Positions 14,023 to 64,000 are shown, counted from the first letter of the stretch. The stretch: 64,000 nucleotides of DNA from an uncultured Rhodanobacteraceae bacterium (GCA_937928755.1 CALEZI010000117.1:21541-85540), one strand, 5' to 3'. Notes: generated from the letters alone by a model not told the origin. Numbers and translations: made by a program.

Positions 14023-16377
14023 ATGAACCTCACCGGCGTGCATCTGTTCCCGGTGCGACATCACTCGCCGCGGGCGGCGATGTGCCTGCGGGCGCTGCTC
14101 GATGAGGTACGTCCGTCGCTGGTGTTGATCGAGGGACCGAGCGATGCCGATGCGTTGATCCCGGTTCTCACCGCGGCAGATTCGATTCCGCCGATTGCGA
14201 TCCTGGCCTATCGCACCGATGGCACGCCGCAGAGCGCGATGTGGCCGTTCGCGCGCTATTCGCCGGAGTACCAGGCCTTGCTGTGGGCGCGTGACCACGG
14301 GGTGACGGCGCGCTTCATCGACTGGCCGTCGGGTGTGGCATTGGCAGCCGACCTGCCGTGCGCGCCGGTTGCGGCGAGCGTGCCCGACGAGACGCCCGAC
14401 GACGCCGTCGAAGAGTCTTTCGAAGCAGACCGTGTGGAGCCTGCAAGTGAAGAGGAAGCGCAGGCGCCCCCGGTCGATCGCCATCAGGCGCTCGCTGAAC
14501 GCTTCGACTTGCGTCATTTCGACGAATTCTGGGACGCTTACTTCGAGACGCCGATCTACCAGCCGGAGTCCTTCCGTACCGCGCTCAACGCGTTCGCCGA
14601 GTGGGTCGCACCAGCCGCAGGACGCGACACCGAGAGTGCGCTGCGTGATCGCATCATGGGCCAGGCGATCGCCGATGCGGTGAACGCCGGCACGCCTCCG
14701 GAGCGCATTGTTGCCGTGCTCGGCGCTGCGCACGTGGCGGCGCTGCTGCGCGGCGATCCAGCGCCCGACGCCAACGTACCGACCGCATTGCCGACAGCGC
14801 TGGCGGTGGTGCCCTACTCCTATCCACGCCTGTCCGAACAGAGTGGCTATGGCGCTGGCAACCGCGCGCCGTGGTACTACGAGCGCGTGTTCGAAGGCGC
14901 CAACGATTTTGCCCGCGCATCGTTGGTGGTGTTGATCGAGTTCGCCGGCAACATGCGCGCGCGCGGATTTTCGGTGTCGCTGGCGGATGTGATCGAGGCC
15001 TATCGACTGGCGCTGACGCTCGCTGATATTCGCGGTAAATCGGCACCCGGCGTCGACGAACTCGCCGAAGCCGCGCAAGCCACATTGACGCGCGGCGAAG
15101 CGGCGCCGATCCGCGAGTTCCTCAACCCGCTGATGATCGGACGGCGCATCGGCAAGCTCGGCGCCAGCGCCGGTCGCAACTCGCTGCAACTCGAGTTTGC
15201 GCAAGGGCTGGCCACCTACGGCCTGCCGCAGGTCGACGAGCCGGAAACCGTGTCGCTGCGCCTGGCCGACGCCACCCAGGCCGGCGCCAGCCTGTTCCTG
15301 CATCGCTTGCGCGTCGCCGACGTGCCCTACGCCAGCTACGCCGGTTCACAATCGGTGGTCACGCGCGGCCGCGCCAGCGACGACGAAGCTGGCGGCTACA
15401 GCGCATTGAGCCGTATGCGCGAGCATTGGGACGTGCAATGGACGCCGGCGACCGAAGTCGCGCTGGCCGAACGCGTGATCTACGGCGAGCGCTTTTCCGA
15501 GGTCTGCGAGCGACGTCTGAACGAGGCCATCGGCAGCGCCGCACACGCGGCCGATGCCACCCGCTTGCTGATCGACGCGGTGCTCACCGATGCCACCCAG
15601 GCCACCGCGCGTGCGCTGGACGCCACCGAACGTCTGAGCAGTCTGGACGACGACGTCGGCAGCCTGAGTCAGGCGGCGCGCACGCTGGCCGCGCTGAAGA
15701 GCTACGGCAGCTCGCGTCCGGCGCTGACGCAGATCGCCGGCACCATCGAACGTTTGCTGGTCGGCACCTTCACTCGCGCGATGCTGCGCCTCGCCATCGC
15801 CAGCCGCGGCGATGTCGAAGCGACGCAGGACGCGCGCGCAGCGATGCGCGTGCTCAACGAACTGGCGTTGTCGCAAGCGCTGCTCGACCGCGGCGCCTGG
15901 ATGCAGACGCTGACACAAATTGCCGGCGACGAAGCCCTGGAGGCAACCGCCAGCGGCGTTGCCGCGGCCTTGTTGTACCTGGCGCGCGAGTTGCACGAAA
16001 ACGATCTGCGCGGCCTGCTCGAGCGCCGCCTCGGCGATGTCATCCGCCCGGCCCGCGCGGCCGATTTTCTCGCCGGTTTTTTCGAGGTCAACGCGCTGGT
16101 ACTGCTGAAGAACCGCGAGATCGTCGCTGCGATGAGCGGCTTTCTGTCAGCGCTGCCCGCCGAGCACTTCCGCGATGCGCTACCCGCGCTGCGCCGAGCA
16201 TTTGCCTTGCTCGGCGCCAGCGAGCGGCGTTTCCTGCTGGAACATCTGGTCGGCCTGCACGGGCGCGCCGCGCCAGCGGTTGCCGCGCAGGTGCTCACCG
16301 CAGCAGACCAGCAGTCGCTGACCGATCTCTCGGCCACGCTGGGACAGGCGCTCGACGATCTGGATGATTTGCTGTGA
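14023..16377 (+). CDS. large DUF5682-like protein (YehM-like)
   Basis: 784 aa. I recognise the N-terminal VHLFPVRHHSPRAA...LIEGPSDA as DUF5682/YehM-type. The rest is helical with no other known domain. Confidence 0.6.
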   Translation: MNLTGVHLFPVRHHSPRAAMCLRALLDEVRPSLVLIEGPSDADALIPVLTAADSIPPIAILAYRTDGTPQSAMWPFARYSPEYQALLWARDHGVTARFIDWPSGVALAADLPCAPVAASVPDETPDDAVEESFEADRVEPASEEEAQAPPVDRHQALAERFDLRHFDEFWDAYFETPIYQPESFRTALNAFAEWVAPAAGRDTESALRDRIMGQAIADAVNAGTPPERIVAVLGAAHVAALLRGDPAPDANVPTALPTALAVVPYSYPRLSEQSGYGAGNRAPWYYERVFEGANDFARASLVVLIEFAGNMRARGFSVSLADVIEAYRLALTLADIRGKSAPGVDELAEAAQATLTRGEAAPIREFLNPLMIGRRIGKLGASAGRNSLQLEFAQGLATYGLPQVDEPETVSLRLADATQAGASLFLHRLRVADVPYASYAGSQSVVTRGRASDDEAGGYSALSRMREHWDVQWTPATEVALAERVIYGERFSEVCERRLNEAIGSAAHAADATRLLIDAVLTDATQATARALDATERLSSLDDDVGSLSQAARTLAALKSYGSSRPALTQIAGTIERLLVGTFTRAMLRLAIASRGDVEATQDARAAMRVLNELALSQALLDRGAWMQTLTQIAGDEALEATASGVAAALLYLARELHENDLRGLLERRLGDVIRPARAADFLAGFFEVNALVLLKNREIVAAMSGFLSALPAEHFRDALPALRRAFALLGASERRFLLEHLVGLHGRAAPAVAAQVLTAADQQSLTDLSATLGQALDDLDDLL

Positions 16378-16446
16378 GCCGGCGTATTCGCTTCCAACAC
16401 TGTGCTGATCTGCACCTCGAACTGAGCGGCAATCTCGGGGGACTGG

Positions 16447-16582
16447 TTTTTTGTCCGCAAAGGACGCAAAGAACGCAAAGGAGAGCAAAGGCGTCAGGGG
16501 TGCGGCGCATGAACATCGAGCCCCAAAACGCTAACTTTCGCATGGCTTTCTTTGCGTCCTTTGCGTTCTTTGCGAACAAAGA
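16447..16582. repeat. family-A k-mer-arm hairpin element
   Basis: GTCCGCAAAGGACGCAAAGAACGCAAAGGAGAGCAAAGG ... CTTTCTTTGCGTCCTTTGCGTTCTTTGCGAAC, with a loop of about 55 nt. Confidence 0.85.
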
Positions 16583-16608
16583 CTCCTGCCCAATGAACAG
16601 CGAGAAGC

Positions 16609-17802
16609 ATGATGGAGCCTGAAGCCGCCGCCGCCCTGCTGCGCTGGCGACTGGTGCTCGGGGCTGAGGCCGAGCGTGCTGAGCCCTTGCTGGGTTTGAG
16701 CGCGCTGTGCGCACAGTGCGGGCCCGCGGCGGAAGACGTGGTGGCGATGACCGAGGCCGAACTTGAAGCGCTCGATGACACGCTCGACTTTGTCTACGGC
16801 GCCGGTCGCAAGAGTGGGCTGACTGCCTATCTGCCGCGCTGGCTGGAGCGCGTGCGCGGCTTCTTCACCGCCGATGTCGTCGCGTTGGTGCAGAAGGATG
16901 CAATCGAGAAGAAGGGGCTGACGCGCCTGCTGTTCGAGCCGGAGACCCTGCCGTACCTGGAGAAGAATGCCGATCTGGTCGCCACGCTGCTGTCGGCGCG
17001 CGCGCTGGTGCCGGACGAGGCGAAGGAAATCGCGCGGGGTATCGTGCGCGAGGTGGTCGAGCAGTTGCGCAAGAAGCTGGAGACGGCGACGCGTACGGCG
17101 CTGATCGGCGCGGTCAAGCGCCATTCGCGCAGCCCGTTCAAGGTCGCCCGCAATCTCGACTGGAAGCGCACCGTGCAGCGCAATCTGCACACCTACGACC
17201 ACAACAAGCGTCGGTTGGTGCCGGAGTCTTTCCACTTCCTCGCCAACCGGCGCAAGCGCCACGAATGGGAGGTGGCGATCCTGGTCGACCAGTCCGGTTC
17301 GATGGCGGTCAGCGTGGTCTACAGCGCGATCATGGCGGCGATCTTCGCCTCCATCGACGTGCTGAAGACGCGTCTGGCCTACTTCAACCACGACACCGTG
17401 GTCGACATGACACCGCATCTGGTGGATCCGGTCGAAGTGCTGTTCAGCGCGCAACTTGGCGGCGCAGAGAACTACAACCTGGCGCTCGATTACGCCAAGG
17501 AACATTTCCTCGAGCGCCCGGACAAGACCTTGGTGCTGCTGATTACCGATCTCTATCACACGGCCGGCAACAACGAGCGTTTTCTGTTGCAGGTGCAGGA
17601 GATGATCGACTCCAAGGTCAAGTTCATGGTCCTGCTCAAGCTCTCAGACGCCGGCCAGCCCAGTTACGACCATGACCTGGCAAAGAAACTGGTCGCCCTG
17701 GGCGCCCATTGTTTCGGCGCCTCACCCAAACAACTGGTGGAGATCGTCGAACGCATCATGAAGAACCAGCCCTACGATCACCTGGCGCAAAACCCGAAAT
17801 GA
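16609..17802 (+). CDS. VWA (MIDAS) domain protein (YehP-like / CoxE-type)
   Basis: MIDAS-type motif EVAILVDQSGSM in the C-terminal half, followed by a Rossmann-like alternation. The N-terminal helical region is of the kind seen in AAA-partner VWA proteins. Confidence 0.75.
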   Translation: MMEPEAAAALLRWRLVLGAEAERAEPLLGLSALCAQCGPAAEDVVAMTEAELEALDDTLDFVYGAGRKSGLTAYLPRWLERVRGFFTADVVALVQKDAIEKKGLTRLLFEPETLPYLEKNADLVATLLSARALVPDEAKEIARGIVREVVEQLRKKLETATRTALIGAVKRHSRSPFKVARNLDWKRTVQRNLHTYDHNKRRLVPESFHFLANRRKRHEWEVAILVDQSGSMAVSVVYSAIMAAIFASIDVLKTRLAYFNHDTVVDMTPHLVDPVEVLFSAQLGGAENYNLALDYAKEHFLERPDKTLVLLITDLYHTAGNNERFLLQVQEMIDSKVKFMVLLKLSDAGQPSYDHDLAKKLVALGAHCFGASPKQLVEIVERIMKNQPYDHLAQNPK

Positions 17803-17824
17803 ATCCGGCGTCGTTCCGCCGCTT

Positions 17825-18293
17825 TTGTAGGCCGCTGTGCCGCGTAGCGGCTCACCGGCGCAGCGATCAAAGCGCCGGTGAGCGCGATGAAACTGCGCAC
17901 ACGCGGCCTACAAAAGAACTTGCGCGTACACCCGTGAACCACAGCTCTGGTAGACCGCTGTGCCGCGTAGCGGCTCACCGGCGCAGCGACCAAAGCGCCG
18001 GTGAGCGCGATGAAGCTGCGCACACGCGGCCTACAAGAGCACTTGCGCATACACCCGTGAACCACAGCTCTGGTAGACCGCTGTGCCGCGTAGCGGCTCA
18101 CCGGCGCAGCGACCAAAGCGCCGGTGAGCGCGATGAAGCTGCGCACACGCGGCCTACAAGAGCACTTGCGCATACACCCGTGAACCATCGCTCTGGTAGG
18201 CCGCTGTGCCGCGTAGCGGCTCACCGGCGCTTTCCCTGCGGTCGTGACCAAAGCGCCGGTGAGTGCGATGGAGCTGCGCACACGCGGCCTACA
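17825..18293. repeat. tandem array, about 3.8 copies of a 123-bp unit, each unit a nested hairpin
   Basis: Units start at 17825, 17948, 18071 and 18194. Units 2 and 3 differ at only about 2 positions. Each has an inner stem GCTCACCGGCGC/GCGCCGGTGAGC and outer GTAGGCCGC...GCGGCCTAC. Unit 4 carries a small indel. Confidence 0.9.
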
Positions 18294-45980: not shown

Positions 45981-46136
45981 GCGCCGGGCGCCCGACGGCG
46001 CCCGCAACCGCCGACGGTGTCTGCTTTAGCTGCCGAACTGCTCAGGTGCCGGCAATCGCCTTTGCGCGGTCGCCGCACCGACCTTCGAGCACTCTCCATC
46101 CTAACTGCACATTCGGGCAGTAGGCTGTGTCGCAGG

Positions 46137-47822
46137 ATGAGATTCGGAAGCCCGACCATGCGCTCCCCCTTGCTGCCGCTTGCGCTGACGCTGCTCGCGT
46201 CATTCACCTTCGCCGCAACATCCGTGTGCGCCCAGGGTGGCCCGCCGCCACTGCCGCCACTCGGTCCGCCACCTGTTCCTGCAGAAAATCCGCAGACCGC
46301 GGCGAAGATCGCGCTTGGCCAGGCGCTGTTCTGGGATGAGCAACTGTCGATCACCGGCACGGTCGCCTGCGGCACCTGCCACATGCCGCGCGCCGGCGGC
46401 AACGAGCCGCGCACCGCACAGCCGAACGCCGCCAGCGTGCATCCCGGCGCGGACCAGTTGTTCGGCAGCGCCGACGATATCGTCGGTTCGATCGGCGTGG
46501 CCGTACACGACGCCAGCGGCCTGTACCAACGCCATCCTTTGTTCGGAATGGCGCCGCAGGTGGGCACTCGCCAGTCGCAATCGGCGATCAATTCGGCGTA
46601 TCCGCCGACCTTGTTCTGGGACGGTCGCGCTGGCGGCACCTTTCTCGATCCCGACACGCAGGCGCCAGTGATCGCCGTCGGCGGCGCCCTGGAGAATCAG
46701 GCGCTCGGTCCGGTGGTCAACAATGTCGAGATGGCGCATTCCGGCCGCACCCTGTCTGACGTTGCAGCGCGTATCGCCGACGTGCGCCGCTTGCGCCTGT
46801 CGCCGAGCATTCCGCCGGCACTGTCGGACTGGATCGCCAACCGCGACTATCCTGCCCTGTTCGCCGAGGTGTTCGGCAGCGCCGAGATCAGTTCGGCACG
46901 GATCGCGCTGGCGGTCGCCAGCTACCAACGCTCGCTGGTCGCCAATCAGACGCCTCACGACCTGCAGAGCGCCGGTCAACCAGCGATGACCCAGGCCGAA
47001 ATCGCCGGTCGCCAGGCATTCCTGCAGGCCGGCTGCGCGCGCTGCCACGGTGGCCCACTGCTCAGCGACAACAATTTCCACTACATCGGCGCGCGACCAC
47101 AGGGCGCTGATCCGGGCCGATTCGCGGTAACCGGCAACAACGCCGACCGTGGGCGCATGCGCACGCCGCCGCTGCGCAACGTCGAACTGTCACCGCCGTA
47201 CATGGCCGATGGCCGCTTGCGCACGCTCGAAGAAGTGGTCGACTTCTACAACCGCGGTGGCGACTTCACGGCGCCGAACAAGGACCCCCGCATCGTGCCG
47301 CTGGGCCTGACGCCGCAACAGCGCGCCGCCATCGTCAGCTTCCTGCGGCGGCCGCTCACCGATGTGCGCGCGCAGAACGAAACCGGACCGTTCGAACGCC
47401 CGATGCTGCTCAGCGAGTCGCCGTTCGCGCCGCAGCCTGCGACCGCAGGAACGCCAGGACAGGGAGGTATCGCACCGCGGCTGATCGCCATCGAACCGCC
47501 ACTCGCCGGCAGCAGCGAGTTCACCATCGGCGTCGACCTTGGCCGGGCATCTGCGAGCGCTCGCGCGCTGCTGGCGTTGACCGACCCTACCGAAGCGACC
47601 GCATCGGCGCTGTTGCAGCGGAACTTCACGCTCGCCGCGGATGGCAGCGCCTCGCTGAACCTGGATCTTCCGAATGACGAGGACCTTCGCGACCTGACCC
47701 TGTACCTGCGGGTGTTTGTCGAAGACCCGGCAGCGAGCGGCGGTTGGTCGTCGAGCAACAGCGTCCGTTTCCAGTTGCTCGAGATCAACGACGCCTTGTT
47801 CGCGCATGGATTCGAGGATTGA
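46137..47822 (+). CDS. di-haem cytochrome c peroxidase (CCP/MauG) family protein with a C-terminal extension
   Basis: Signal peptide. Haem motifs CGTCHMP and CARCHGG. PPLRNVELSPPYMADGRLRTLEEVVDFYNRGG is typical of CCP/MauG. An extra ~170-aa C-terminal region ends in ALFAHGFED. Confidence 0.8.
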   Translation: MRFGSPTMRSPLLPLALTLLASFTFAATSVCAQGGPPPLPPLGPPPVPAENPQTAAKIALGQALFWDEQLSITGTVACGTCHMPRAGGNEPRTAQPNAASVHPGADQLFGSADDIVGSIGVAVHDASGLYQRHPLFGMAPQVGTRQSQSAINSAYPPTLFWDGRAGGTFLDPDTQAPVIAVGGALENQALGPVVNNVEMAHSGRTLSDVAARIADVRRLRLSPSIPPALSDWIANRDYPALFAEVFGSAEISSARIALAVASYQRSLVANQTPHDLQSAGQPAMTQAEIAGRQAFLQAGCARCHGGPLLSDNNFHYIGARPQGADPGRFAVTGNNADRGRMRTPPLRNVELSPPYMADGRLRTLEEVVDFYNRGGDFTAPNKDPRIVPLGLTPQQRAAIVSFLRRPLTDVRAQNETGPFERPMLLSESPFAPQPATAGTPGQGGIAPRLIAIEPPLAGSSEFTIGVDLGRASASARALLALTDPTEATASALLQRNFTLAADGSASLNLDLPNDEDLRDLTLYLRVFVEDPAASGGWSSSNSVRFQLLEINDALFAHGFED

Positions 47823-55718: not shown

Positions 55719-55830
55719 GTGAAACGTTAAATGTCAAACGTCAAACGTCAATTGAAAAGCACGGCGGGCAGCGCTTTTCGTTTCACGTTTCACGTTTCAC
55801 GTTTCACACCTTTCACCTTTCACGTTTCAC
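55719..55830. repeat. k-mer-arm hairpin element, type B (7-mer GTGAAAC/GTCAAAC arms)
   Basis: Left arm GTGAAACGTTAAATGTCAAACGTCAAACGTCAATTGAAAAGC, a 12-nt loop, and right arm GCTTTTC(GTTTCAC)x4 ACCTTTCACCTTTCACGTTTCAC. The right arm overlaps the last codons and the stop of ispG. Confidence 0.8.
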
Positions 55831-57091: not shown

Positions 57092-57095
57092 TTTT

Positions 57096-57292
57096 GAGAA
57101 GCGGGGCAAGGGGCAGGGGGCAAGGGAAATGGCGCAAAGCTTCGTTTGCAGCGTTGTCGCGGACCGGAGGCTCTGAACGGCACGTGCCCCGCGCAAGGTC
57201 TCAGGCTTGGCGCCCGAAATCGCACGCCGCGACGGTGCCCGTGCATGGCGCAACGGCTGGTCCCCTGCCCCCTGCCCCCTGCCCCGCTCTTC
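57096..57292. repeat. k-mer-arm hairpin element, type C (7-mer GGGGCAG/GGGGCAA arms)
   Basis: The 32-nt arm GAGAAGCGGGGCAAGGGGCAGGGGGCAAGGGA (57096-57127) pairs with TCCCCTGCCCCCTGCCCCCTGCCCCGCTCTTC (57261-57292). The arms are 28/32 complementary, with a 133-nt loop. Confidence 0.8.
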
Positions 57293-57356
57293 ACAGCCTC
57301 GACCTCGTCAACTGAAGTTCCACGCGCGCCTTGATGTCTACCGCGCGCATCACCCC

Positions 57357-59240: not shown

Positions 59241-61640
59241 ATGTCGGACATCGTCGAAATCGCAATCGTCGGCTCGGGGCCGGGCGGCATCAGTGCCGCT
59301 GCTCGTGCCGCCGAACTCAAAGTGTCGCACGTGTTGCTGGAAGCTGCGCCGCACCTGTCGAACACGATCTTCCGCTATCAGAAAGGCAAACACGTGATGG
59401 CCGAGCCCGAGGCTCTGCCGTTGCGCTCGCCGCTGACCTTCAGCGCCGGCAGTCGCGAATCGATCCTCGAGGCCTGGGACCAGGGCGTCGCCAGCCTCGC
59501 GGTGAACGTGCGCCATGGCGCAGAGATCACGGCGATCAAGAAGCTGGATGACCACTTCGAACTCAGCATCGGCCGCAAGGACAAGCTGCTGGCGCGCAAT
59601 GTGGTACTCGGCATCGGCCTGCAGGGCAACATCCGCAAACTGGGCGTACCCGGCGACGACGCGCCCTTTGTCCAGTACACCCTCGACGATCCAGACGAAT
59701 ACGAAGGCGAGACCATCATCGTGGTCGGCGCCGGCGACGCCGCGATCGAAAACGCCGTGGCGCTGGCCAGGCAGAATCAGGTCGTGGTGGTCAACCGCCG
59801 CGAGGAATTCGCACGCGCCAAGGAAGGCAACCTGCGCGCCATCAGCAAGGCCATCGAGGACGGCGTGATCGAGTGTTACTTCGGCGCTGCGCCAGAACGC
59901 GTCGACAAACTCTCGGTCGGCCGCAAGCCGGGTCGACTGATCCTGAACACGCCCAAGGGCCGCGCCCAGGTGCTCTGCGACCGCATCATCGGTCGCCTCG
60001 GCGCCAACCCGCCGCGCGCCTTCGTCGAGGCCTGCGGCGTGGTGTTTCCGAATGCCGATCCATCGGCAGTGCCGGCGATCAGCGCCAAGTACGAGAGCAA
60101 CGTGCCCGGCCTCTACATCGTCGGCGCCCTCGGCGGTTATCCGCTGATCAAGCAGGCGATGAACCAGGGCTATGAGGTGGTCGAGTACATCCTCGGCCGC
60201 AGCGTGGAGCCCGCCGACGAGCCACTGCTGCGCGCCAAGTTCCAGAGCATGCCAGGCTTCAGCTCAGTCGGCGCGGCGCTGGAGAAGGTGCAGTCGGCGG
60301 TGCCCTTGCTGGCGACCATCACGCCGCTGCAGTTGCGCGAATTCATGATCGATTCGGATATCCGCACACCGAAATCCGGGGAGATTCTGTTCAAGCGCAA
60401 CGACTACACCAACAGCTTCTACTGCATCGTTGCGGGACAGGTCGAGATTCTGGTCGACGAGGCGGCAGGCAAGCGCGTGGCACTCGGCCCCGGCGAGTTT
60501 TTCGGTGAGATGAGCCTAATCTCGGGGCGTCGTCGCAGCGCCACGGTTTTCGCTGGCGCCAACTGCGTGCTGATCGAAACCCCGCGACGGTCGATGACCA
60601 AACTGATCAACTCGGTCGACGCGGTCAAGAAGCTGGTCGACCGCACCTTCGTCGAACGTGCCATCCGCGCGCGCTTTGGCGACGAGGCGACCGTCGCGCA
60701 GATCAAGGAGGTGGTATCGGGCGCCTCGCTGCAGCGCTTCAAGGCCGGCGAGGTCCTGTTCCGCGAGGGCGACGACGGCGATTGTCTGCACCTCGTTCGC
60801 GTCGGATCGTTGACCATTTCCAGGTCGATCGGCGGTCGCGACATCGTCCTGTCCTACGTACCCGCCGGCAACTACGTCGGCGAAATGGCGATCATCGGCG
60901 GCAGCAAGCGTTCGGCGACGGCGAAGGCTGCGGTCGCGACCGAGACCATTCGCGTCGAGCGCGACGCATTTCGCAAGCTGCTCGGTCAGAATCCGCTGTT
61001 GCGCGCGAAGCTGGCGCAGGAGGTCAAACAACGCACCGCCGAGAACATCACCATGCAGGCGGCCGCCTCGGGCGGCGACATCATTTCCTTCCTCGTCGGA
61101 CAGGGCCTCGGCGAGGCCACCGACGTGCTGTTGATCGACGAGTCCTTGTGCGTGCGCTGCGACAACTGCGAGAAGGCCTGCGCCGAAACCCACGGCGGCA
61201 CCTCGCGACTGGATCGAGAAGCCGGGCCGACCTTTGCCAACGTGCACGTGCCGACCTCCTGCCGACACTGCGAGCACCCGCACTGCATGAAGGATTGCCC
61301 GGCGGACGCCATTCACCGCGCACCCAACGGCGAGGTCTACATTGCCGACAACTGCATCGGCTGCGGCAATTGCGAACGCAACTGCCCGTATGGCGTCATC
61401 CACATGTCGGCCAAACCGAAGAAGAAGCCGGGACTGCTGCAATGGTTGTTGCTCGGTGCCGGCCCTGGCCCCGGCGAGTCGCCTTATGACCCCGACAGCC
61501 ACGAAAAGAAAGCGGTCAAGTGCGATATGTGCAAGGACATCAAGGGTGGTGCCTCATGCGTGCGCGCCTGCCCGACCGGCGCGGCGATCCGCATCAGCCC
61601 GGAACAACTGCCTGAATACGCCTTTGCTCGGGGGCCGTGA
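59241..61640 (+). CDS. multidomain redox/signalling protein: FAD/NAD(P)-binding reductase + two cNMP-binding domains + 4x[4Fe-4S] ferredoxin domain
   Basis: IAIVGSGPGGISAA and IIVVGAGDAAIENA dinucleotide folds. Two CAP-type cNMP motifs (FFGEMSLISGRRRSATV, YVGEMAIIGGSKRSATA). Four Cys clusters (CVRCDNCEKAC, CRHCEHPHCMKDCP, CIGCGNCERNCP, CDMC...CVRACP). Confidence 0.8.
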   Translation: MSDIVEIAIVGSGPGGISAAARAAELKVSHVLLEAAPHLSNTIFRYQKGKHVMAEPEALPLRSPLTFSAGSRESILEAWDQGVASLAVNVRHGAEITAIKKLDDHFELSIGRKDKLLARNVVLGIGLQGNIRKLGVPGDDAPFVQYTLDDPDEYEGETIIVVGAGDAAIENAVALARQNQVVVVNRREEFARAKEGNLRAISKAIEDGVIECYFGAAPERVDKLSVGRKPGRLILNTPKGRAQVLCDRIIGRLGANPPRAFVEACGVVFPNADPSAVPAISAKYESNVPGLYIVGALGGYPLIKQAMNQGYEVVEYILGRSVEPADEPLLRAKFQSMPGFSSVGAALEKVQSAVPLLATITPLQLREFMIDSDIRTPKSGEILFKRNDYTNSFYCIVAGQVEILVDEAAGKRVALGPGEFFGEMSLISGRRRSATVFAGANCVLIETPRRSMTKLINSVDAVKKLVDRTFVERAIRARFGDEATVAQIKEVVSGASLQRFKAGEVLFREGDDGDCLHLVRVGSLTISRSIGGRDIVLSYVPAGNYVGEMAIIGGSKRSATAKAAVATETIRVERDAFRKLLGQNPLLRAKLAQEVKQRTAENITMQAAASGGDIISFLVGQGLGEATDVLLIDESLCVRCDNCEKACAETHGGTSRLDREAGPTFANVHVPTSCRHCEHPHCMKDCPADAIHRAPNGEVYIADNCIGCGNCERNCPYGVIHMSAKPKKKPGLLQWLLLGAGPGPGESPYDPDSHEKKAVKCDMCKDIKGGASCVRACPTGAAIRISPEQLPEYAFARGP

Positions 61641-62536
61641 CGATGCATGACTCGATTCTCGATTACCGCGGCTTCCGCTACCTCTGGGTGGCGCTGATCC
61701 TGTCGATCGGATCGATCGTCGCCTATGTCTGGCATGACCCGATAGGCGTGCCCAATGGCGGGTCCTGGCTCGGCTACACGCTCGGCACCATCGGCGCCCT
61801 GCTGATCTTGTGGCTGCTCTGGTTCGGTATCCGCAAGCGCCGTTATTCCGGCGGCAGCGGCACCGCTCGCGGCTGGTTGTCGGCGCATGTATACCTCGGC
61901 ACCACGCTGATCCTGATCGCGTTCCTGCATGCCGGCTTCCAAGTCGGCTGGAACATCCACACGCTGGCGCTGGTCTTGATGCTGCTGGTGATCTTCAGCG
62001 GCTTTTTCGGCGTTTATGCGTACTTGCGCTATCCCGCGATGATGACGCGCAATCGCGCCGACACCACGCGCGACGCGATGCTCGCCGAGATTCGCGAACT
62101 CGACCAGCAGACCCTGCAGCTCGCCGACAAGGTCGACAAGAGCATCCACGACGCCATTCTGAGCTCGATTCAGCACACCCAACTCGGCGGTGGTGTCTGG
62201 ACGCAACTGAGTGCGCGCGACGACTCCGGATTGGCTCTGGCCAAGCTCAAGGAAGCCGTACTCAAGTCGGAAACCGGGGAAAAGTCATCGAAATCCGGTC
62301 AGACCATGGTGATGATGGTCGATTTCCTCGCCAACCAGGCCACCGATGCACAATCGGAAAACCTGCGCAGACTGATCGATCTGGTCTCGCGCAAGCGCGC
62401 CCTGGCAGCGCGCGTCGCGCGCGACATCCAACTCCAGGCGCTGATGGAAATCTGGCTCTACATCCATGTCCCGCTGTCGCTCGGATTGCTCGGTGCGCTG
62501 ACGGCGCATGTGGTGGCGGTGTTTTTTTATTGGTGA
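61637..62536 (+). CDS. integral membrane protein with conserved His residues in TM helices (possible haem-b electron-transfer subunit)
   Basis: An ATGA overlap links it to the upstream gene. Four N-terminal TM helices contain WLSAHVYLG, IAFLHAGF and NIHTLAL, followed by a soluble helical segment and a C-terminal TM helix. Confidence 0.6.
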   Translation: MTMHDSILDYRGFRYLWVALILSIGSIVAYVWHDPIGVPNGGSWLGYTLGTIGALLILWLLWFGIRKRRYSGGSGTARGWLSAHVYLGTTLILIAFLHAGFQVGWNIHTLALVLMLLVIFSGFFGVYAYLRYPAMMTRNRADTTRDAMLAEIRELDQQTLQLADKVDKSIHDAILSSIQHTQLGGGVWTQLSARDDSGLALAKLKEAVLKSETGEKSSKSGQTMVMMVDFLANQATDAQSENLRRLIDLVSRKRALAARVARDIQLQALMEIWLYIHVPLSLGLLGALTAHVVAVFFYW

Positions 62537-62537
62537 T

Positions 62538-62660
62538 GAAGCGGGAAAAGGGGAAATGGAAAATGGAAAAGGGAAAGGCAACAGCAATGCGCGGGCGCAA
62601 GTCGCACTCTTCGCACCTCCTTTTTCCTTTTTCCTTTTTCCTTTTTCCCCTTCCCCGCCC
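62538..62660. repeat. k-mer-arm hairpin element, type D (7-mer GGAAAAN / CCTTTTT arms)
   Basis: Left arm GAAGCGGGAAAAGGGGAAATGGAAAATGGAAAAGGGAAAGG, and right arm CCTCC(TTTTTCC)x4-like run ending CCCCTTCCCCGCCC. It shares the terminal GAAGCGGG motif with type C. Confidence 0.8.
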
Positions 62661-62684: not shown

Positions 62685-64000
62685 ATGAAATGGTTCATTC
62701 GCCGCGTCATCAAGAAGGGCAAAGGCAGCCTGCAGTTCGAGGAAGAAATTCACTTCGGCGAGACGCTGACCGTTGGCCGTGCCGCCAATCAGGCCATTTT
62801 CATCAACGACCTGCGTGCCGCACTGGAGCATGCCCGCGTCGTCGCGCTGGGTAACGGTCGTTATCGTGTCGAGTCGCTGGTCGCCTCCGGAATACGCATC
62901 GATGGTCGCTTCGAGCACGCCGCGACGGCCACTTCCGGCTGCACCCTCGAAATTGGCAACGTGCGCATCACGCTGGTGGACCCGCCTGCCGACTTTGAAG
63001 CTGCGGTGGAAGTCGGGTTGGTCGACAAGGCTGAAGTCGCCGCGCGCGAAATATCCGAAGCGCTGCCGCAGTCATTGGCCGAAGCGGGACTTGGCAAACG
63101 CAAGCTGGCTTGGACTTTGCTGCTGCTGACGCTCGCATTCGGGCTGTTGTTGCCCGTTGCCGCGCATTTCGTCCCCACCTTCCGAGCGATCACCAAGGAC
63201 GTTCCAGCCGTCGGACTCAACGCTTGGGACAGTGGTCCACTGGCAGCCGCCCACCACACCATGGCGAACGATTGCCAGAGTTGCCACGGCGAGCCGTTCA
63301 ACGTGGTCGCCGACGACAAATGCATCGTCTGTCATGCGGGCACTGCCGCGCATGCGGATCCGGTGAAATATCCGTTGCCGGACATCGCCGATGCCCGCTG
63401 CGCACATTGCCATCGCGATCACAACGGCGACGACGGCCTGGTGCGCGCCGATCAGGAACTCTGCAGCGACTGCCATCGCAACCTGAGCGAACGCGTCAAC
63501 GGCGACACACTGCTGGTCGATGTGTCCGATTTCGGCAGCAACCACCCGCAATTCAAGATTCTGCTGCCGGCGTGGGATGCGCAGGGACGGTATCAGCCGG
63601 AACGGGTCAGCATGGACCAGATTCCGTTGACCGAACGCTCCGGCCTCAAGTTCCCGCATTCAAAACATCTGCCTGCCGCAGGCTTGAAGACTCCCGATGG
63701 CGTGCGCGTGCTCGACTGCGTCGATTGCCACAAACCCGAGCCGGGCGGTGCGCTGATCGCGCCGATCAATTTCGAACTGCACTGCCAGTCGTGCCATCGC
63801 ATTGATTTCGACCTGCGCATGCCGGACCGCCAGGTGCCGCACGGGAATGCCGCCGAAGTGCAGTACATGCTCGACGAGTTCTATTCCAAGGTCGCGCTGG
63901 AAGGCGGATACGACGACGTTCAGGCACCGGTGACGGTGCGCCAGCGCAGGCGCCCTGGCGAGGCGCCGCCCAATGCTCAGGAGCAACGCGAAGCACTGGC
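62685..64000 (+). CDS. FHA-like domain / single TM helix / multihaem c-type cytochrome, 3'-partial (not in the supplied ORF track)
   Basis: I translated from the ATG at 62685 and found no stop to the window end (438 codons). N-terminal LTVGRAANQAIFINDLRAALEHARVV..GNGRYRVE...GIRIDGR....LEIGNVRITL is FHA-like. TM helix WTLLLLTLAFGLLLPVAA. Six CxxCH motifs follow: CQSCH, CIVCH, CAHCH, CSDCH, CVDCH, CQSCH. Confidence 0.75.
   Translation, partial: MKWFIRRVIKKGKGSLQFEEEIHFGETLTVGRAANQAIFINDLRAALEHARVVALGNGRYRVESLVASGIRIDGRFEHAATATSGCTLEIGNVRITLVDPPADFEAAVEVGLVDKAEVAAREISEALPQSLAEAGLGKRKLAWTLLLLTLAFGLLLPVAAHFVPTFRAITKDVPAVGLNAWDSGPLAAAHHTMANDCQSCHGEPFNVVADDKCIVCHAGTAAHADPVKYPLPDIADARCAHCHRDHNGDDGLVRADQELCSDCHRNLSERVNGDTLLVDVSDFGSNHPQFKILLPAWDAQGRYQPERVSMDQIPLTERSGLKFPHSKHLPAAGLKTPDGVRVLDCVDCHKPEPGGALIAPINFELHCQSCHRIDFDLRMPDRQVPHGNAAEVQYMLDEFYSKVALEGGYDDVQAPVTVRQRRRPGEAPPNAQEQREAL

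Follow-up and report, generated by a model that had tools for sequence, protein, structure and literature searches.

Why would a bacterium build a flavin-dependent reductase, two cyclic nucleotide (cNMP)-binding domains, and a ferredoxin into one protein, and where would the electrons go once they reach its end? We addressed this question for a fusion gene encoding a protein of 799 amino acids (aa), which lies on a 64,000-nucleotide (nt) stretch of DNA from an uncultured Rhodanobacteraceae bacterium (GCA_937928755.1 CALEZI010000117.1:21541-85540), referred to here as the window. A first-pass annotation, made from the sequence alone, had described the gene as a single-polypeptide fusion of an FAD/NAD(P) reductase, two cNMP-binding domains, and a four-cluster ferredoxin, and had proposed that the two nucleotide-sensing domains gate electron transfer within the protein. 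Our analyses lead us to favour, with moderate confidence, the reading that the fusion is the cytoplasmic, cNMP-sensing electron-input subunit of a three-gene (and probably larger) transmembrane conduit, which would carry electrons from NAD(P)H to a decahaem cytochrome c independently of quinones.

The fusion is a single uninterrupted open reading frame (ORF) of 799 codons (Table 1), with a third-position GC of 0.84, as in other real genes of the window. Pfam recognised Pyr_redox_3 (E = 1.3e-26, residues 9-295), cNMP_binding (PF00027; E = 6.6e-39 in two stretches, 132.2 bits against a cut-off of 27.5), and Fer4_11 (PF13247; 38.5 bits against a cut-off of 26.2) together with other Fer4 models at residues ~630-790. 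One ORF and a Pfam order far beyond chance thus confirm the single polypeptide and the domain order that had been proposed, and each of the motifs named at that time (GSGPGG, GAGDAA, two cNMP cassettes, and four Cys motifs) was located in the translation. The possibility that the gene would turn out to be two ORFs after sequence correction is excluded, because the best 120 database homologues are every one 771-820 aa long with 96-100% coverage, and full-length relatives extend down to ~30% identity. An exhaustive search with the fusion returned 948 clusters (50% identity) at E <= 1e-30, and among the best 150 of these the full architecture is present in at least 33 clusters, again down to ~30% identity. 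The nearest named relatives are proteins from metagenome-assembled genomes (MAGs) of Rhodanobacteraceae and other Xanthomonadales, which NCBI labels merely as 'cyclic nucleotide-binding domain-containing protein', and full-text literature searches found no characterised example of the fusion. Conservation was assessed in a diverse alignment of 33 full-length homologues at 29-74% identity, within which all 16 cluster Cys are kept without exception, as are both dinucleotide motifs. Since the N-terminus is itself the FAD beta-alpha-beta motif (MSDIVEIAIVGSGPGG), a signal peptide is impossible, and the protein is predicted to be cytoplasmic because it has none.

Electrons would enter through the N-terminal flavoprotein domain, in which G11, G13, P14, G16, G165, and D166 are invariant in the diverse alignment. 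Foldseek matched this domain to Bdr (7a7b) and to ferredoxin-NADP+ reductases (FNRs) of the thioredoxin reductase (TrxR) type, namely B. subtilis YumC (3lzw) and the C. tepidum (3ab1) and T. thermophilus (2zbw) enzymes; E-values were ~1e-19 to 1e-18 for 3ab1, 2zbw, 3lzw, and 6gar, with TM-scores of only ~0.5. A common fold is thereby indicated for all of these, and the fusion flavoprotein would further resemble TrxR-type FNRs in having two dinucleotide folds, no CxxC, and an Fe-S protein as putative electron partner, here part of the same polypeptide; unlike it, they and YpdA/Bdr are free-standing proteins of ~330 aa with soluble partners. Two disulfide reductase families were considered and rejected, with the fusion far under both cut-offs: the YpdA/Bdr bacillithiol disulfide reductases (TIGR04018; 112.2 bits against 339.9) and thioredoxin reductase (TIGR01292; 53.4 bits against 343). 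Cysteines occur within residues 1-345 only at positions 212, 246, and 265 and form no CxxC pair, and the GSGPGG motif contains none, unlike the FAD motif of Bdr, in which the active-site Cys sits. With neither a redox CxxC nor a Cys in the FAD motif, the flavoprotein is not a disulfide reductase and would have to hand on single electrons as FNRs do. The segment NRREEFARAK, which follows the second dinucleotide motif, resembles HRRDxFRA, the NADPH 2'-phosphate site of TrxR, and hints at NADPH as the electron donor.

At the other end of the polypeptide, sixteen Cys in four CxxCxxCxxxC-type motifs and the Fer4_11 match above its cut-off identify a four-cluster ferredoxin. Its structural matches are HycB (7z0s_B, E = 2.9e-15) and HycB3/HycB4 of 7qv7, which places it nearest to the cytoplasmic 'wire' subunits HycB and HydN. 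The Cys motifs had at first been likened to those of NrfC, HybA, and DmsB; the four motifs and 16 Cys stand, and orthology to these proteins does not, as the NCBIfam equivalogs scored far below their cut-offs (AegA 62.7 bits against 1003, HydN 51 against 260, DmsB 48.8 against 214, NrfC 42.3 against 378, and HybA 35.4 against 263). A periplasmic subunit of the NrfC/HybA/DmsB type was likewise rejected, given that there is no Tat signal peptide and that the ferredoxin is C-terminal to a cytoplasmic flavoprotein. The 16-Cys wire is of the same type as in HycB/HydN and in FdnH of formate dehydrogenase-N. FdnH hands its electrons to a di-haem membrane subunit, FdnI, and we propose the same logic for the fusion and its candidate membrane partner, although the ferredoxin here, unlike FdnH, is cytoplasmic and joined to its own NAD(P)H-flavin donor.

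The genes that follow suggest that the ferredoxin chain continues past the fusion, through coupling to a membrane protein and a multihaem c-type cytochrome. The fusion stop codon lies 2 nt ahead of the ATG of a gene for a 297-aa membrane protein, and an alternative GTG start of that gene, at 61637, overlaps the stop codon. The predicted protein has five hydrophobic helices in an N-in/C-out topology (positive-inside rule), and helices 4 and 5 are separated by a helical insert of 139 aa on the cytoplasmic side. It is strongly conserved and carries the database label 'hypothetical protein', while one UniRef entry bears the name of the ferric-reductase transmembrane domain. Two H-x13-H motifs, one in helix 3 (H82/H96) and one in helix 5 (H275/H289), lie at matching depths in the membrane, and both of these hydrophobic motifs are present in 25/25 diverse membrane domains, over all gene contexts. 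Two His pairs on two transmembrane helices, with a spacing that would suit two stacked haems, make the protein a candidate di-haem cytochrome b of an undescribed family. Two known families were tried and rejected for it: the ferric-reductase transmembrane domain (PF01794; NOX, MsrQ) gave no hit even at E up to 10, and cytochrome b561/FdnI (PF01292) matched the last helix only, at 14.2 bits against 30.1, so that homology to FdnI or cytochrome b561 is not detectable.

The third gene begins after a spacer of 148 nt and runs off the window end. Its predicted product starts with an FHA-like domain in the cytoplasm, crosses the membrane with one helix, and continues on the periplasmic side as a multihaem cytochrome c (Cytochrom_c3_2, E = 1.6e-6), of which six CXXCH motifs are visible in the window; complete orthologues have exactly ten in 12/12 cases. 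The FHA model (PF00498) scored 14.3 bits on the window protein against a cut-off of 20.7, compared with 33.4 bits on the orthologue from locus L014, and the N-terminal regions align at 28-56% identity across loci. Additional conserved genes lie downstream of the decahaem gene in other genomes (L002, L008, L010, L012, L014, and L022; L001 at 16005-18047), in a region that the window ends before. In most relatives these encode a ~650-aa lipoprotein with three HbpS-like (haem-degrading-protein-like) repeats, a ~620-aa protein without Pfam match, possibly an outer-membrane component, and a cytochrome c with five or six haems.

The order fusion, membrane protein, FHA/multihaem cytochrome is conserved across phyla. 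Our locus scan, with one genome per species, yielded 13 loci with a complete fusion, one 5'-truncated copy (L005), and one fragment (L038), and the order is kept in 12 loci from Gammaproteobacteria, Alphaproteobacteria, and Acidobacteriota (L001, which was found separately, L002, L004, L005, L006, L008, L010-L014, and L022). In two further loci the set is incomplete: the L003 contig carries the fusion and membrane-protein genes and stops ahead of the third one, and in L038 the fusion gene is represented by its 3' end alone, with the membrane-protein and cytochrome genes after it. The cluster is seen directly in cultured Tahibacter amnicola (L001), and hits to one or both of the first two proteins point to it in two Pseudomarimonas species. 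Nature has also joined the parts in frame. P0244 (1110 aa) consists of flavoprotein, cNMP, cNMP, and ferredoxin domains continued into the membrane domain; Planctomycetota ORFs combine a two-cluster ferredoxin, a circularly permuted flavoprotein, and the membrane domain in one polypeptide; and a Polyangia ORF joins a cNMP-like domain, a four-cluster ferredoxin, and the membrane domain. These arrangements bear on whether the fusion might instead resemble AegA/YgfT, as a cytoplasmic NAD(P)H:ferredoxin-type oxidoreductase that is soluble, works on a soluble substrate, and has nothing to do with its neighbours. The best NCBIfam matches of the ferredoxin do include AegA, HydN, and YgfT, and ferredoxin-flavoprotein fusions of the AegA/YgfT kind are cytoplasmic, but these scores are far under the family cut-offs, and the gene order kept across phyla, the in-frame fusions to the membrane domain, and the tightly coupled start and stop codons make a soluble enzyme extremely unlikely.

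Composition varies around this core. In Bacteroidota and Gemmatimonadota, the loci encode the membrane protein, a ferredoxin-flavoprotein without cNMP domains, and a 19-23-haem cytochrome, while forms of 440-510 aa have two cNMP domains and the ferredoxin without a flavoprotein. P0254 and P0251 carry N-terminal extensions on the FAD, cNMP, cNMP, ferredoxin architecture; Pfam found two FHA domains in the P0254 N-terminus (97.7 bits) and no FHA in P0251, so that FHA recurs in the system, either on the decahaem protein or at the flavoprotein N-terminus. In P0250 (1212 aa), the cNMP domains are set apart by large insertions. At several loci (L016, L019, L024, others of L015-L037, and L077), the flavoprotein is a circular permutation of the one in the window, in that the C-terminal FAD 'GD' piece has moved to the front, ahead of the GxGxxG piece and the NAD(P) domain; it is preceded by a membrane helix and a two-cluster ferredoxin, and its gene is flanked by a membrane-protein gene of the same family and a 19-23-haem cytochrome gene. 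Tahibacter amnicola has an extra 148-aa gene without Pfam hit between the fusion and membrane-protein genes (L001, 10419-10865), which is absent from the window.

Unlike the cNMP-free versions of the module, the fusion carries a central cNMP tandem. The best solved-structure matches of the tandem as a whole are PKA-R/PKG proteins (5j3u, E = 9.5e-26; 5dyk, E = 5.9e-21), which likewise have tandem cNMP-binding domains with canonical cassettes; unlike them, the fusion has no kinase partner, inhibitor sequence, or docking domain, and its tandem is inserted in a redox protein. Both phosphate-binding cassettes (FGEMSLISGRRRSATV and VGEMAIIGGSKRSATA) contain the Gly-Glu...Arg-[Ser/Thr/Ala]-Ala signature (FGEMSLISGRRRSAT and VGEMAIIGGSKRSAT), and they are canonical (Gly-Glu...Arg-Ser-Ala) in the fusion and in 47/47 close relatives (>=71% identity), so the ligand-binding residues whose absence would have spoken against nucleotide sensing are in place. 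Arg-Ser-Ala is present in cAMP-binding and in cGMP-binding proteins alike, and because of this ambiguity the sequence would fit either nucleotide. A CRP/FNR transcription factor was rejected, as PRK11753 matches over profile positions 11-130 of 214 only, with 81 bits against 266. Pfam and NCBIfam found no helix-turn-helix or other DNA-binding or output domain in the fusion, which is thus not a transcription factor, in agreement with the initial view that simple transcriptional control would not call for such a layout. The Gly-Glu...Arg triad is kept in 20/33 (cassette A) and 17/33 (cassette B) of the diverse family members, and cNMP sensing is therefore not a family-wide property. The original reading is thus partly supported: the domain order, the intact cassettes, and the lack of a DNA-binding domain speak for it, and gating of electron transfer within the protein stays a proposal.

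Where the tandem is present in the family, it is always attached N-terminal to the four-cluster ferredoxin, and since the same electron-transfer core exists without cNMP domains in some lineages, it looks like a regulatory add-on inserted into a redox chain. It might be argued that the electron chain operates as described here while the cNMP-type domains are structural spacers or bind another ligand, with no gating. CRP/FNR-superfamily domains can bind other ligands or none, and the triad is absent in 13/33 (domain A) and 16/33 (domain B) relatives that nonetheless keep all cofactor motifs. However, the cassettes are fully canonical and evidently constrained in the fusion and its close relatives, and the existence of cNMP-free versions of the module indicates that the domains are dispensable as spacers; we regard this alternative as unlikely. 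Allosteric control by cNMP is plausible for the lineage of the window, though not universal in the family.

Taken together, these features suggest a route for the electrons. NAD(P)H would reduce the FAD of the thioredoxin-reductase-fold domain, which would pass single electrons on into the C-terminal wire of four [4Fe-4S] clusters, and this wire would dock on the five-helix membrane protein. There, the four invariant His are proposed to ligate two b-type haems, one per membrane face, the outer of which would reduce the membrane-anchored periplasmic decahaem cytochrome c; in relatives, the chain would go on to more multihaem cytochromes and a probable outer-membrane component. We hypothesize that the cNMP tandem acts as a second-messenger switch, in which ligand binding would move the ferredoxin with respect to the flavin or the membrane partner and thereby turn the flow on or off, and that the FHA domain of the cytochrome provides a second, phospho-threonine-dependent input or docking point. 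An open conduit would drain reducing power, which offers a rationale for built-in control. We put forward only tentatively the specific idea of a second-messenger electron valve, in which cAMP or cGMP opens a quinone-independent path to the cell surface and FHA adds phospho-threonine control.

The same complex could in principle run in reverse, with periplasmic or extracellular donors such as Fe(II) feeding the multihaem cytochromes, from which electrons would travel inward by way of the membrane protein and the ferredoxin wire to the flavin, where NAD(P)+ would be reduced to supply the cell with reducing power. TrxR-type FNRs are reversible enzymes, and related clusters have been described from an Fe(II) oxidiser that grows autotrophically and from Nitrospirales that oxidise nitrite. 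Such a flow would, however, be uphill from typical cytochrome c potentials and against the inside-negative membrane potential, and no proton-coupling subunit was seen in the cluster. Moreover, the cluster occurs in Xanthomonadales genera with cultured isolates (Tahibacter and Pseudomarimonas) and in Rhodanobacteraceae MAGs, and these organisms are heterotrophs. Outward flow, favoured by both redox potential and membrane potential, is thus the likelier direction, and we consider the reverse one improbable. Another way to read the two classic signalling domains built into the assembly is as parts of a combined redox and second-messenger sensor, which would report the periplasmic redox state through its cNMP-binding and FHA domains rather than serve as a bulk conduit. 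This seems to us very unlikely, as no output domain (kinase, cyclase, GGDEF, or HTH) is present and one FAD, four clusters, two putative haems, and ten haems far exceed a sensor's needs.

Several observations weigh against a cNMP-sensing conduit to a decahaem cytochrome. The triad losses described above are one of them, and many lineages of the family appear to manage without cNMP. A scan of the eleven proteins encoded at 39.9-59.2 kb of the window turned up neither a cyclase nor a Ser/Thr kinase (below 39.9 kb it was unscanned). At L007 and L009, no membrane-protein gene adjoins the fusion gene, which has multihaem genes directly beside it, and P0244 is one cluster representative that could be an assembly or read-through artefact. 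Structural modelling was of limited help: the AlphaFold2 model of the fusion (47 homologues) had a mean predicted local distance difference test (pLDDT) score of 68.9 and a predicted template-modelling score (pTM) of 0.58, with pLDDT of 30-50 over the ferredoxin domain, so that it gives no usable cofactor geometry, and a fold search with it re-found just the individual domains. The model of the membrane protein was poor as well (pLDDT 65.4), and Foldseek matched it in the PDB only to noise such as BAR domains and ABC transporters. Searches with the membrane-protein sequence in Pfam (E up to 10), NCBIfam, and PDB sequences gave no significant match, and hhalign comparisons of its family profile stayed at the level of reversed-sequence controls for E. 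coli MsrQ (0.5% probability), FdnI (0.6%), and YodB (0.2%). With all sequence and profile comparisons null, the protein is not placed in any known cytochrome b family; it is the histidine pattern that suggests haem binding, just as it is thermodynamic reasoning that suggests the direction of flow.

The proposed path nevertheless has parallels among known systems. In NOX5 and MsrQ-Fre, electrons pass from NAD(P)H to a flavin and then across the membrane through two bis-His b haems. NOX5 is switched on by the second messenger Ca2+ through EF hands, in parallel with the cNMP control proposed for the fusion. The resemblance does not extend to sequence, as no relationship to NOX or MsrQ is seen, and here an Fe-S wire stands between flavin and putative haems, and electrons would be taken up by a multihaem cytochrome instead of O2 or MsrP. 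NAD(P)H-to-haem transmembrane electron transfer and multihaem conduits are thus known kinds of system, and what appears unusual is the direct NAD(P)H input, the undescribed candidate di-haem membrane family, and the built-in second-messenger and FHA modules. To our knowledge, every inner-membrane protein that has been well studied as an entry point for periplasmic or extracellular electron transfer (CymA, ImcH, CbcL, and NrfH-type proteins are examples) draws on the quinone pool. If our reading is true, a widespread NAD(P)H-to-periplasmic-multihaem module would represent a different bioenergetic solution, made of a flavin, an Fe-S wire, and a new di-haem membrane protein; direct cyclic-nucleotide allostery on an electron-transfer chain would be a new use of bacterial cNMP signalling, for which Ca2+-activated NOX5 of eukaryotes is the closest parallel; and, should the tentative valve idea hold, cells could dump or deliver cytoplasmic reducing power outside on command. 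The analysis also provides testable targets, namely the named genes, four histidines, two cassette arginines, and cultured hosts.

Two clusters described in recent preprints, compared here by their verbal descriptions only, appear to be versions of the window-type cluster. The first, ptdABCDEFG (bioRxiv 10.1101/2023.11.21.568154), includes an FAD/NAD(P) oxidoreductase, a cNMP-binding 4Fe-4S protein, a ferric-reductase-like inner-membrane protein, deca-, tetra-, and pentahaem cytochromes, and a porin, and its function was given as 'completely unknown'. Its parts list (PtdC, PtdE, PtdF, and PtdG) agrees with the cluster of the window, and the ptd pentahaem cytochrome and porin have possible counterparts in relatives of the window cluster, which carry the penta-/hexahaem gene and, preceding it, the ~620-aa gene that might match the porin. 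Unlike the window, ptd has its flavoprotein and cNMP/Fe-S protein on separate genes and a different gene order, its PtdC is likened to flavohaemoproteins, and the description makes no mention of an FHA domain. The second, the 'NHC' cluster of Ferrigenium straubiae (bioRxiv 10.64898/2026.01.22.701106), comprises an FHA-nonahaem protein, a five-helix protein without database matches, and a [4Fe-4S] protein; its authors called the function 'unclear' and proposed electron delivery to quinone during Fe(II) oxidation. As appears to be the case in the window, an inner-membrane-anchored multihaem cytochrome has a cytosolic FHA domain, whereas it has nine haems compared with ten, and flavin, cNMP domains, and conserved histidines are unmentioned by the authors. 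The conserved histidines, the fusions, and the cNMP-free versions are reported in neither preprint, and our reading offers a functional frame for clusters that both had left without a function.

Table 1. Positions of the fusion gene, its domains and motifs, the genes that follow it, and other features of the window (positions counted from the first letter of the window)
Feature	Position	Strand	Evidence or remark
Fusion gene, 799 aa: FAD/NAD(P) reductase, cNMP A, cNMP B, four-cluster ferredoxin	59241..61640	+	ORF, Pfam, NCBIfam, same-length homologues
Flavoprotein domain, residues ~1-345; thioredoxin-reductase / YpdA / TrxR-type FNR fold	59241..60275	+	Pyr_redox_3, Foldseek, invariant motifs
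FAD motif GSGPGG, residues 11-16	59271-59288	+	
NAD(P) motif GAGDAA, residues 163-168	59727-59744	+	
Segment NRREEFARAK	59793-59822	+	
cNMP-binding domain A, residues ~352-475	60294..60665	+	PF00027; MloK1 and PKA-R matches over residues 351-474
Phosphate-binding cassette A, residues 421-436	60501-60548	+	
cNMP-binding domain B, residues ~480-600	60678..61040	+	PF00027, best stretch residues 498-584; tandem against PKA-R/PKG
Phosphate-binding cassette B, residues 546-561	60876-60923	+	
Four-cluster [4Fe-4S] ferredoxin, HycB/HydN type, residues ~628-790	61122..61610	+	Fer4 models, HycB matches, invariant Cys
Cys motif 1, CVRCDNCEKAC, residues 637-647	61149-61181	+	
Cys motif 2, CRHCEHPHCMKDCP, residues 674-687	61260-61301	+	
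Cys motif 3, CIGCGNCERNCP, residues 705-716	61353-61388	+	
Cys motif 4, CDMCKDIKGGASCVRACP, residues 761-778	61521-61574	+	
Five-helix membrane protein, 297 aa, candidate di-haem b carrier	61643..62536	+	ORF, invariant His, topology, gene order, P0244 fusion
FHA-like domain, membrane helix, and multihaem cytochrome c, at least 438 aa, runs off window end	62685..64000	+	Translation, CXXCH, Pfam
Membrane helix of third gene	63105-63173	+	
Six CXXCH motifs of third gene	63273 to 63797	+	
Intergenic long hairpin, purine-rich and pyrimidine-rich arms	62541..62658	+	RNA fold -61.4 kcal/mol, z = -3.07
Intergenic long hairpin	57095-57293		Arms GGGGCAAGGGG/CCCCTGCCCC
Intergenic long hairpin	55719-55830		Arms GTGAAACG/CGTTTCAC
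Divergent gene, 601 aa	57357-59162	-	No Pfam or NCBIfam hit
Di-haem cytochrome c peroxidase/MauG-family gene	46017-47822	+	~11 kb upstream of fusion gene

On the 5' side of the fusion gene, eight of the scanned neighbours are recognisable as metabolic, envelope, or transport genes (IspG, a GNAT acetyltransferase, PyrD, MurB, a phosphoglucomutase, a di-haem peroxidase, a beta-lactamase-fold protein, and a TonB-dependent receptor). The other three lack a Pfam match, among them the 601-aa protein encoded directly upstream. The product of this divergent gene is 40% identical to a Tahibacter neighbour that carries FimW_N, and, as it shares synteny with the cluster in Tahibacter alone of all loci examined, it probably has no relation to the cluster. 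The peroxidase/MauG-family gene has the beta-lactamase-fold gene upstream of it, and an unannotated ORF and the phosphoglucomutase gene downstream. A scan for promoters and terminators gave nothing above chance. Three intergenic long hairpins with short tandem units in their arms were found in the window (Table 1), which may be a family of repeat elements or transcript-processing signals. The sole one inside the cluster lies between the membrane-protein and cytochrome genes and pairs a GGAAAA-type purine arm with a CCTTTTT-type pyrimidine arm, and it could affect transcript processing or stability.

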